A stretch of 64,000 bases of DNA from assembly GCF_055900595.2 (NCBI RefSeq), contig NZ_CM148325.1; one strand, 5' to 3'. Below the pieces are notes generated by a model, which saw only the letters and a program-made list of their open reading frames with translations, was not told where the DNA came from and did not search any database. The position numbers and the translations under genes were made by a program. This document shows positions 32,100 to 33,141 of this stretch, piece by piece (the first letter of the stretch is position 1; each line of letters begins with the position of its first letter).

Positions 32100-32159
32100 T
32101 TTCATTAAGAAAAAAACGAGATCATTGTTTAGGGTTGTATTTACACAACAGGAAATATT

Positions 32160-33035
32160 ATGGACTTTTTTACGTTATTTTCGCCAGATGGGGCCATGCT
32201 GGAAACAAACGTGGTATGTATCGTTATCGCGTTGATGTTTCTTTATACCTTTGTGGGGATATGCGCGGGATTTGGTGGCGGTTTAACCACCATGCCACTC
32301 GTCACGTTAATGCTCCCCGTAAAAATGGCAACACCACTTTCGGTAATTGTCGGCACCGCAACCGCCTTGTACGCCACCTGGCTATCACGCAAAGAAACGG
32401 ATTGGCGCTCGGCAATGGTGCTGATTATTTTCTCATTTTTGGGAATACCCGTCGGTTTATATGCGCTGTCGTATTTACCCGACCATTTTATGAAAGTGGG
32501 CTTAGGTGGATTTCTTATCCTCTACTCCTTTTACAGCATGTTTATTCCTCGCTTGCCGATTTATGACCGTAACTGGATCGCCGCACCTATCGGCGCAGTA
32601 GCTGGCGCATTAGGCGCGGCGTTCTCAACCAACGGGCCGCCGATGGTTATCTACGGGATGCTACGTAACTTAGGTCCGGCGGCATTTCGCGGCACACTGA
32701 ACGCCTTCTTCACCGCAAACAACATCGCGGTGATCGGCGGGCTGGCGACCAGCGGAATTTTGACTGTTTCTATCTTTAAACTGGTGCTGTTTTGTATTCC
32801 CACCATGATCCTCGGTTCACTGATTGGACAATATGTGCATAAACGCATTTCGGTCAAAGTGTTTCGTGTGATGGTCTTTTTATTGTTGATTGCCTCCGGT
32901 TCTATGTTGATAAAAGGTGCGTTGGGAATTCCCGCTGCTGCCGCACTTCTGCCTCCGTTTACCTTGTTAGTTATACTGCAACTGGCATTTGGTAAAAAAG
33001 TGGCGGCAATCCGCCGGGCTGAAGAAAGTAAATAA
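32160..33035 (+). CDS. TauE/SafE-family anion permease (putative sulfite/sulfonate exporter, 291 aa) inside the sulfoquinovose cluster
   Basis: About 8 predicted TM helices, two-fold repeat typical of the family; SD aggaaa; not in K-12 gene order as recalled. Confidence 0.65.
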   Translation: MDFFTLFSPDGAMLETNVVCIVIALMFLYTFVGICAGFGGGLTTMPLVTLMLPVKMATPLSVIVGTATALYATWLSRKETDWRSAMVLIIFSFLGIPVGLYALSYLPDHFMKVGLGGFLILYSFYSMFIPRLPIYDRNWIAAPIGAVAGALGAAFSTNGPPMVIYGMLRNLGPAAFRGTLNAFFTANNIAVIGGLATSGILTVSIFKLVLFCIPTMILGSLIGQYVHKRISVKVFRVMVFLLLIASGSMLIKGALGIPAAAALLPPFTLLVILQLAFGKKVAAIRRAEESK

Positions 33036-33141
33036 TCATTATGCGGGTTTTAATTTATACCTTCACACATTCTTTAATTAATGAAACCTGTAATAACAGG
33101 ATGGCATGAAATATTAGTTTTATACTCTATGGAGATTATTT

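Follow-up and report, generated by a model that had tools for sequence, protein, structure and literature searches.

A TauE/SafE-family permease gene between yihR and yihQ, likely an ancestral member of the sulfoquinovose operon and a DHPS exporter, is absent from E. coli K-12

Sulfoquinovose (SQ) is among the commonest organosulfur compounds. Its breakdown in E. coli and Salmonella yields 2,3-dihydroxypropanesulfonate (DHPS), from which gut sulfidogens then produce H2S. Export is the least established step of the pathway, since the field's model is based on K-12 and names YihP as the exporter without direct evidence. The window analyzed here, a stretch of 64,000 nucleotides from an E. coli genome, carries the SQ genes with one difference from K-12: the canonical long yih cassette of K-12 (ompL-yihOPQRSTUVW) has ten genes, whereas the window has an eleventh, a permease gene that we call tauE, between yihR and yihQ. 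This raises two questions, whether the gene was inserted here or lost from K-12, and what the permease does in a pathway that K-12 runs without it.

The sulfoquinovose locus and its eleventh gene

The window contains a complete sulfo-EMP locus in which every ORF is intact. The minus strand bears csqR-yihV, and the plus strand yihU-T-S-R-[TauE]-Q-P-O-ompL. The features of the locus are as follows.

26191..27906, minus strand: csqR (yihW) repressor and yihV (sulfofructose kinase), the divergent arm (ORFs, annotation)
28074..28970, plus strand: yihU (sulfolactaldehyde 3-reductase), first gene of the operon (NCBIfam NF012005, annotation)
28994..29872, plus strand: yihT (sulfofructose-phosphate aldolase), intact in the window
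29888..31129, plus strand: yihS (sulfoquinovose isomerase) (ORF, annotation)
31197..32099, plus strand: yihR (sulfoquinovose mutarotase / aldose-1-epimerase), upstream neighbor of tauE (ORF, annotation)
32100..32159, plus strand: yihR-TauE spacer, 60 nt; the left edge of the K-12 replacement described below lies here or in the final yihR codons
32150..32153, plus strand: Shine-Dalgarno sequence AGGA, 6 nt 5' of the tauE ATG (read from the sequence)
32160..33035, plus strand: tauE, TauE/SafE (TSUP) permease gene, ATG start, intact, 291 aa (ORF and translation, Pfam PF01925)
33036..33141, plus strand: TauE-yihQ spacer, 106 nt; only its last ~58 nt match K-12, at 78% identity
33087..33100, no strand: palindrome CCTGTAATAACAGG, ~40 nt before the yihQ ATG, at the right edge of the replaced segment
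33142..35178, plus strand: yihQ (sulfoquinovosidase), downstream neighbor of tauE (ORF, annotation)
35224..36609, plus strand: yihP, GPH:cation symporter family, the textbook "DHPS exporter" (TIGR00792)
36650..38053, plus strand: yihO, GPH:cation symporter, sulfoquinovose importer (NCBIfam profile)
38121..38813, plus strand: ompL porin, last gene of the cassette (ORF, annotation)

The interval 32100-33141 begins right after the yihR stop (32099) and ends just before the yihQ start (33142). An earlier note, written from the letters of the window, had described a 291-aa polytopic protein with its own Shine-Dalgarno sequence at this place, and both points are borne out: the ORF at 32160-33035 encodes a protein with 8-9 hydrophobic segments, and AGGA stands 6 nt before its ATG. 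RefSeq annotates the identical gene (100% DNA identity), with the product WP_000345431.1, "sulfite exporter TauE/SafE family protein." Strong purifying selection acts on tauE (pN/pS 0.02-0.11), with a ratio of 0.045 in the comparison with O157:H7, 0.015 with E. whittamii, and 0.108 with Salmonella; it is hence no chance ORF. Because neither the 60-nt nor the 106-nt spacer flanking tauE contains a promoter-like or terminator-like consensus on the plus strand, the gene would most simply be co-transcribed with yihR and yihQ. The strains used for published yih RNA-seq, K-12 and Nissle, both lack it.

The window represents a minor E. coli lineage. Its typA-glnA stretch is ~98% identical to that of mainstream strains and reaches at least 99% identity in 14 genomes only, and in the yih region its identity to other E. 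coli is no more than about 93-95%. In the complete genome closest to the window, yihT carries the nonsense change W129*.

Origin and distribution of tauE

The earlier note gave yihR and yihQ as neighbors in K-12 with no gene between them, which is correct, the two being separated there by a spacer of 198 bp. Taken by itself, this adjacency would fit an insertion of tauE here by horizontal transfer, with K-12 showing the original state, and in Klebsiella/Kluyvera-type clusters, too, yihR adjoins yihQ and TauE follows yihQ. However, Salmonella enterica has an ortholog that is 86% identical and lies at the same site in the same orientation, within full synteny from dtd to ompL; the contig collection has 23,831 indexed blocks with precisely this protein (cluster P0006). 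A pattern scan of one genome per species recovered the order yihR-TauE-yihQ also in E. whittamii (99% amino acid identity), Citrobacter sp. wls619, Mangrovibacter, Superficieibacter, S. diarizonae, and an enterobacterial MAG. Moreover, the divergence of tauE follows that of its neighbors, and the flanks of the gene in the window hold no mobile-element remnants.

The K-12 spacer itself is more than a clean, empty site. It resembles the TauE-positive form only in the 58 nt next to yihQ (78% identity); the other ~140 nt are unlike it, and the change is a replacement rather than a simple deletion. Short-word blastn of the K-12 spacer against all fetched loci, the window, O157:H7, and Salmonella detected no tauE remnants in it, and the ~140-nt AT-rich filler matched neither the tauE gene nor any fetched locus, so that no source for it emerged. 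Filler and junctions are identical in K-12, REL606, and isolate A287. The yihR and yihQ flanks of K-12 and O157:H7 are 94-99% identical nearly to the junction; only blocks spanning it are lower, at 83-86%. The palindrome CCTGTAATAACAGG at 33087..33100 is kept in TauE-positive and TauE-negative E. coli haplotypes alike and is not present in the Salmonella spacer.

Since Salmonella and four other genera carry the gene at the same site, and since TauE-less E. coli share one scar, we regard K-12 as the derived state. The pattern points to a single replacement within E. coli, of ~1 kb by ~140 bp of unrelated AT-rich DNA, that was later inherited or spread by recombination. Thus, the comparison of the yihR-yihQ interval across E. 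coli and Salmonella, which the earlier note had suggested, finds a TauE-positive Salmonella at the same site and a replacement scar in K-12, and the word "inserted" in the title of that note does not stand. We consider horizontal insertion into the window's lineage very unlikely. By this comparison, tauE appears to be an ancestral member of the SQ operon that was lost in the K-12 lineage, a reading held with much higher confidence than the export role discussed below.

Among 5426 complete E. coli genomes, about a quarter (1295) carry tauE, including O157:H7 and ST648. The gene is always chromosomal and, except in one genome, single-copy, and it occupies the yihR|yihQ site under the same annotation in every E. 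coli record inspected. The earlier note had allowed that K-12 and most E. coli might already carry the gene here; this fails for K-12, which lacks it, and holds for these 1295 of 5426 genomes, where it is annotated at the same site. The long yih cassette is found in ~3850 of the 5426, roughly one third of them TauE-positive and two thirds TauE-negative, the latter including K-12, REL606, and C43(DE3). The remaining ~1570 match the window only in the flank up to yihX, which fits the "short" yihTUVW cassette of phylogroup B2 (PMC12608037). In that study of 413 strains by Kaznadzey et al. 2025 (PMC12608037), the long cassette is ompL-yihOPQRSTUVW; it corresponds to the cassettes with or without TauE distinguished here, and the short yihTUVW cassette to our third class. 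A TauE gene, or any permease in the yihR-yihQ gap, goes unmentioned in its main text.

The O157:H7 (WP_000345437.1) and Salmonella enterica TauE genes are the same gene as that of the window, at the same site, of the same length, and in the same operon. Compared with the O157:H7 ortholog, the window's tauE has 94% DNA identity and 6 non-synonymous differences. IS1 interrupts or truncates tauE in strains BE2-5 and PSS-08-2, and decay of the gene is thus ongoing outside the K-12 lineage too. O157:H7 and Salmonella on one side and K-12 on the other form a natural presence/absence polymorphism for this gene.

Gene neighborhood and the exit of DHPS

Orthologs with 65-99% identity occur in Enterobacterales, Vibrio, Aeromonas, and a betaproteobacterium. 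We mapped reference proteins onto 33 ortholog loci, six of which came from an exact-protein look-up (Salmonella, Hafnia, and Klebsiella) and 27 from the one-genome-per-species scan. In all 33, tauE lies within an SQ cluster of sulfo-EMP or sulfo-ED-like type, a count to be read with the fact that the loci were chosen via TauE itself and that clusters without both TauE and YihP fall outside it. Every locus also encodes a reductase (YihU-type or NAD_binding_2) together with a symporter (GPH or SSF), and none of the loci whose genes were listed has an aldehyde dehydrogenase. The clusters follow three layouts.

Layout A: yihR-TauE-yihQ, in Escherichia, Salmonella, and others
Layout B: yihQ-TauE-(yihP)-yihO, in Klebsiella, Kluyvera, C. 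freundii, Pantoea, Atlantibacter, and Lelliottia
Layout ED, gene order: SSF symporter, then dehydratase, HpcH aldolase, epimerase, SGL lactonase, NAD_binding_2 reductase, SDR, and TauE
Layout ED, taxa: Hafnia, Mixta, Leminorella, Edwardsiella, Buttiauxella, C. amalonaticus, Vibrio owensii, and Aeromonas cavernicola

Layout ED has the enzyme set of the published P. putida SQ1 sulfo-ED operon, with a reductase in place of the sulfolactaldehyde dehydrogenase. In NCBIfam, the Hafnia-type operon receives generic or sub-threshold names ("L-arabinonate dehydratase," "D-xylose dehydrogenase"), and its reductase is 31% identical to YihU and under every NCBIfam cut-off. We call the operon sulfo-ED-like on the basis of its Pfam composition, its embedded TauE ortholog, and the fusion of such genes with yih genes, as two genomes (L024 and L026) have ED and EMP gene sets joined around one TauE. 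YihP is missing from the Klebsiella and Lelliottia clusters and from that of one Enterobacter MAG, where YihO and TauE are kept; to judge by gene content, YihP is dispensable in TauE-bearing clusters. The pattern of the 33 loci makes TauE the constant partner of a symporter and a sulfolactaldehyde-reductase-type enzyme in two different routes.

These observations suggest a place for TauE at the end of the pathway. SQ or its glycosides would come into the cell via OmpL and two GPH symporters, YihO and YihP; YihQ, R, S, V, and T would convert SQ to DHAP and sulfolactaldehyde, and YihU would reduce the sulfolactaldehyde to DHPS, a dead-end anion for which the TauE protein would provide the exit from the cell. 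In the K-12 and E. coli B lineage, tauE would have been lost once, so that DHPS would have to leave by another route. On balance, TauE is probably an inner-membrane exporter of C3-sulfonate (DHPS), its substrate and direction both being read from gene neighborhood. Export of a C3 sulfonate, which the earlier note had put forward, seems the most economical reading of the comparative data, given the neighborhood in 33 loci. Its other suggestion, a modified pathway end product, finds no support, because YihU is intact (600.9 bits for the NCBIfam equivalog NF012005, cut-off 348); moreover, no sulfolactaldehyde dehydrogenase is present among the ORFs and annotations of the window's cluster.

The exclusive association with SQ clusters would fit import equally well. 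TauE could take up SQ, sulfoquinovosyl-glycerol, or some other sulfonated substrate: the family, TSUP, takes its name from a system for 4-toluenesulfonate uptake and includes uptake systems, and according to PMC8940949 the TauE/TSUP proteins in sulfo-EMP and sulfo-ED clusters import SQ as well as its glycosides. However, every tauE cluster already has a sugar or glycoside:cation symporter (YihO-type GPH or SSF), TauE is never the sole transporter of a cluster, and K-12, a strain without TauE, needs YihO to grow on SQ. In addition, one sulfonate must go out per sugar, and the Klebsiella-type (YihO and TauE) and ED-type (SSF and TauE) clusters encode no other candidate for its exit. We consider import unlikely.

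That K-12 manages without the gene bears on a further alternative, in which TauE would be a relief valve or general anion exporter for toxic sulfonated intermediates (sulfolactaldehyde, sulfolactate, and sulfosugar phosphates after dephosphorylation), redundant with YihP or housekeeping transporters. About two thirds of the E. coli long cassettes lack tauE, some strains have IS1 hits in it, and K-12, where the pathway was worked out, grows on SQ without TauE. Moreover, Klebsiella sp. ABR11 is reported to excrete sulfolactate as well as DHPS. Set against this are the 76-89% identity of TauE across Enterobacterales, Vibrio, and Aeromonas, with pN/pS about 0.1 or lower, and its retention where YihP is absent. 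Because of this strong conservation and of its retention without YihP, a core rather than an accessory role can be argued, and the relief valve seems as improbable as import.

Least probable by far among the functional alternatives is export of sulfite, as the name in Pfam and RefSeq, "sulfite exporter TauE/SafE," would have it. This name is a family label and not an assayed function. The sulfo-EMP route leaves the C-S bond uncleaved and DHPS is excreted intact, and none of the EMP- or ED-type clusters examined contains a desulfonating enzyme.

If DHPS export is the role of TauE, YihP has to be considered again. K-12 excretes DHPS (PMC6278857), and since it does so without tauE, the gene is dispensable for export and another exit exists. 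The same study found that a yihO knockout does not grow on SQ and called YihP the "most likely" DHPS exporter (PMC6278857), and YihP is also named as the likely exporter in PMC12890257. This 2026 review, which repeats that "YihP exports DHPS," does not mention the TauE gene in its main text. YihP and TauE share an operon and a proposed step; YihP comes from an unrelated family, that of the GPH:cation symporters, and some TauE clusters lack it. Being 64% identical to the importer YihO, likewise a GPH:cation symporter, YihP is a poor a priori candidate for a C3-sulfonate exporter. We therefore raise a stronger version of the DHPS export reading, tentatively and as somewhat less than an even chance: TauE may be the dedicated DHPS exporter of enterobacterial sulfo-EMP and sulfo-ED, YihP may be a second importer (for example, of sulfoquinovosyl-glycerol), and K-12 may be a natural exporter-loss variant. 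If so, the textbook statement that YihP is the DHPS exporter would be wrong, and about two thirds of the E. coli long cassettes would lack an original pathway component. For the exit step, tauE is a cheap and testable candidate, one that appears ancestral, is strongly conserved and confined to SQ clusters, and is missing from K-12.

The TauE protein and its relatives

The Pfam search that the earlier note had proposed as a check of its TauE/SafE assignment gives a match to PF01925 (TauE) with an E value of 2.4e-35 and 122.8 bits, covering residues 23-248 and model positions 2-235 of 237. The protein is a permease of the TauE/SafE family (PF01925; TSUP, TC 2.A.102), an assignment made with much higher confidence than the export role, and PF01925 is present in all homologs listed. 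No NCBIfam model assigns it, and it has no curated equivalog name.

The founders of PF01925 are TauE of Cupriavidus necator and SafE of Neptuniibacter, and TsaS of Comamonas is a TSUP uptake protein. All three belong with the enterobacterial protein to one family of small polytopic permeases for organosulfonate or sulfite transport, within which remote similarity is expected, but their substrates differ, being sulfite/sulfoacetate, sulfolactate, and toluenesulfonate. Closer in proposed job are the TauE-type permeases of other sulfoglycolysis clusters. Such proteins are predicted as C3-sulfonate exporters in the sulfo-TAL pathway (SftE of Bacillus aryabhattai, Firmicutes) and in the sulfo-EMP cluster of Arthrobacter AK04, and the sulfo-ED operons of P. 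putida SQ1 and Rhizobium have a predicted sulfolactate exporter of TauE type. These exporters share with the enterobacterial TauE the Pfam family, the co-encoded SQ enzymes, and the proposed job. A point of difference is that enterobacterial TauE accompanies a reductase (product DHPS) and not a sulfolactaldehyde dehydrogenase (product sulfolactate).

TauE-type exporters are thus routinely predicted in sulfoglycolysis clusters, and ours is not a new kind of system. A passage of PMC8940949 credits Denger et al. 2014 with having already shown TauE-bearing sulfo-EMP clusters. Because PGAP names the gene in over a thousand complete genomes, we rate it as already known at the level of annotation, and its kind is known from other sulfoglycolysis clusters; a literature search under several gene names found no paper on the enterobacterial tauE gene itself. 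Overall, tauE is an ordinary operon member, annotated and ancestral, and is likely to be the DHPS exporter.

An AlphaFold2 model built from an alignment of 92 sequences (mean pLDDT 95.9, pTM 0.91) consists wholly of helices, 11 in number, two of which are short. The helices follow the pattern of one long, one short, and three long, occurring twice, after which comes an extra C-terminal helix at residues 259-290. Gly/Pro-rich motifs recur at residues 36-47 (AGFGGGLTTMPL) and 148-161 (AGALGAAFSTNGPP). As a test for an internal 4+4 TM duplication, local alignment of the N-terminal and C-terminal halves scored 32, with a shuffle mean of 33. Neither a profile search of PDB sequences nor Foldseek against the PDB returned a significant relative of solved structure, so that the model gives no mechanistic analogy. 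BacA/UppP was considered as a fold relative, with the best partial Foldseek overlap (TM 0.45-0.51), and was set aside as not significant.

In sequence, the enterobacterial clade stands apart from the rest of the family. In a library of 1.84 billion representatives of 50%-identity clusters, one full-length cluster only lies near the TauE query, at 80% identity. The next full-length relatives outside the clade have at most 38% identity, are ~240 aa long, and occur in unrelated gene contexts. The C-terminal helix at 259-290 is clade specific, with residues aligned to it in only 3 of 78 outgroup sequences, and this helix and the limit of 38% identity to outside relatives set the enterobacterial clade apart from the exporters of other sulfoglycolysis clusters named above. 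Thirty-eight positions are invariant in the TauE clade and rare outside it. They include G33 (R/Q in the outgroup), G40 (D), L171 (W), N181 (Q), L195 (H), and several Thr/Ser where the outgroup has aliphatic residues. These clade-invariant positions are candidates for determining substrate specificity.

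Erosion of the cassette in E. coli

Following the TauE gene, the TauE/SafE-family permease gene between yihR and yihQ that is a candidate DHPS exporter, through the E. coli comparison loci, we found further losses in the gene itself and in the surrounding sulfoquinovose (yih) cassette. In REL606 (E. coli B; L010, 1212-1376), the ~140 bp of unrelated AT-rich DNA that replaces the TauE gene in K-12 is accompanied by an extra deletion taking out the start of yihQ, which RefSeq annotates as a pseudogene without its N-terminus. In BE2-5 and PSS-08-2, the TauE gene is broken or truncated by IS1, together with loss of yihQ, yihP, yihO, and ompL, and the remaining truncated cluster abuts the yihM region.

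The window's yihT (28994-29872) is an intact ORF. Its counterpart in Z0117EC0005 (L041, 20995-21873), a genome 99.9% identical to the window, carries W129*, and internal stops are annotated in both yihT and yihS of E500002 (L001, 9807-11942). These lesions suggest that the sulfoquinovose pathway is decaying in the closest sequenced relatives of the window lineage, where the TauE gene is still intact.

Divergence around yihR and yihQ

Within the cassette, yihR (window 31197-32099) has diverged much faster than its neighbors: YihR shares 70% identity with its Salmonella counterpart and 89% with that of E. whittamii, compared to 84-96% and 95-99%, respectively, for the remaining cassette proteins, and identity to Klebsiella/Kluyvera-type clusters falls to 51-60%. 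The adjacent yihS-yihR spacer is 137 bp in K-12 (L002, 1372-1510) versus ~66 bp in the window (31130-31196), and its alignment block is just 67-69% identical to TauE-containing forms; the K-12 haplotype therefore carries a second indel here. Upstream of yihQ, the palindrome CCTGTAATAACAGG (window 33087-33100) is kept in both E. coli haplotypes, with AATAAC duplicated inside it in isolate A287, and is missing from the Salmonella spacer upstream of yihQ. This palindrome may be a regulatory site.

Combined sulfoglycolytic loci

In Citrobacter amalonaticus (L024) and Enterobacter sp. ENT03 (L026), a sulfo-ED-like gene set adjoins the sulfo-EMP gene set and a single TauE gene is common to both. Thus, some enterobacteria may run both routes from one locus.

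Other features of the window

39026-44563 (+): six intact ORFs in the ompL-typA interval, of the families STM4015, STM4014, STM4013/SEN3800 hydrolase, STM4012 and STM4011 radical-SAM, and Cof-type HAD
8265-12408 (-): gene pair between fdhD and yiiG, encoding a 768-aa TPR protein and a 611-aa ATP-binding protein
~20978-22792 (-): transposase gene and truncated hypothetical gene between yiiE and fabY, as annotated in the matching RefSeq record

The six ORFs match a gene set carrying Salmonella names, and this part of the query was covered in only 2 of the 45 E. coli records sampled (Z0117EC0005 and AVS0096); the set is likewise present in E500002. Its first gene has a frameshift in the two closest genomes, whereas the window has an intact 282-aa ORF.

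The fdhD-yiiG pair, at a junction whose two flanking genes are adjacent in K-12, could be a small defense or accessory island; the sole PADLOC match of its 611-aa ATPase is a weak, partial one to TmtA (E 5e-6).
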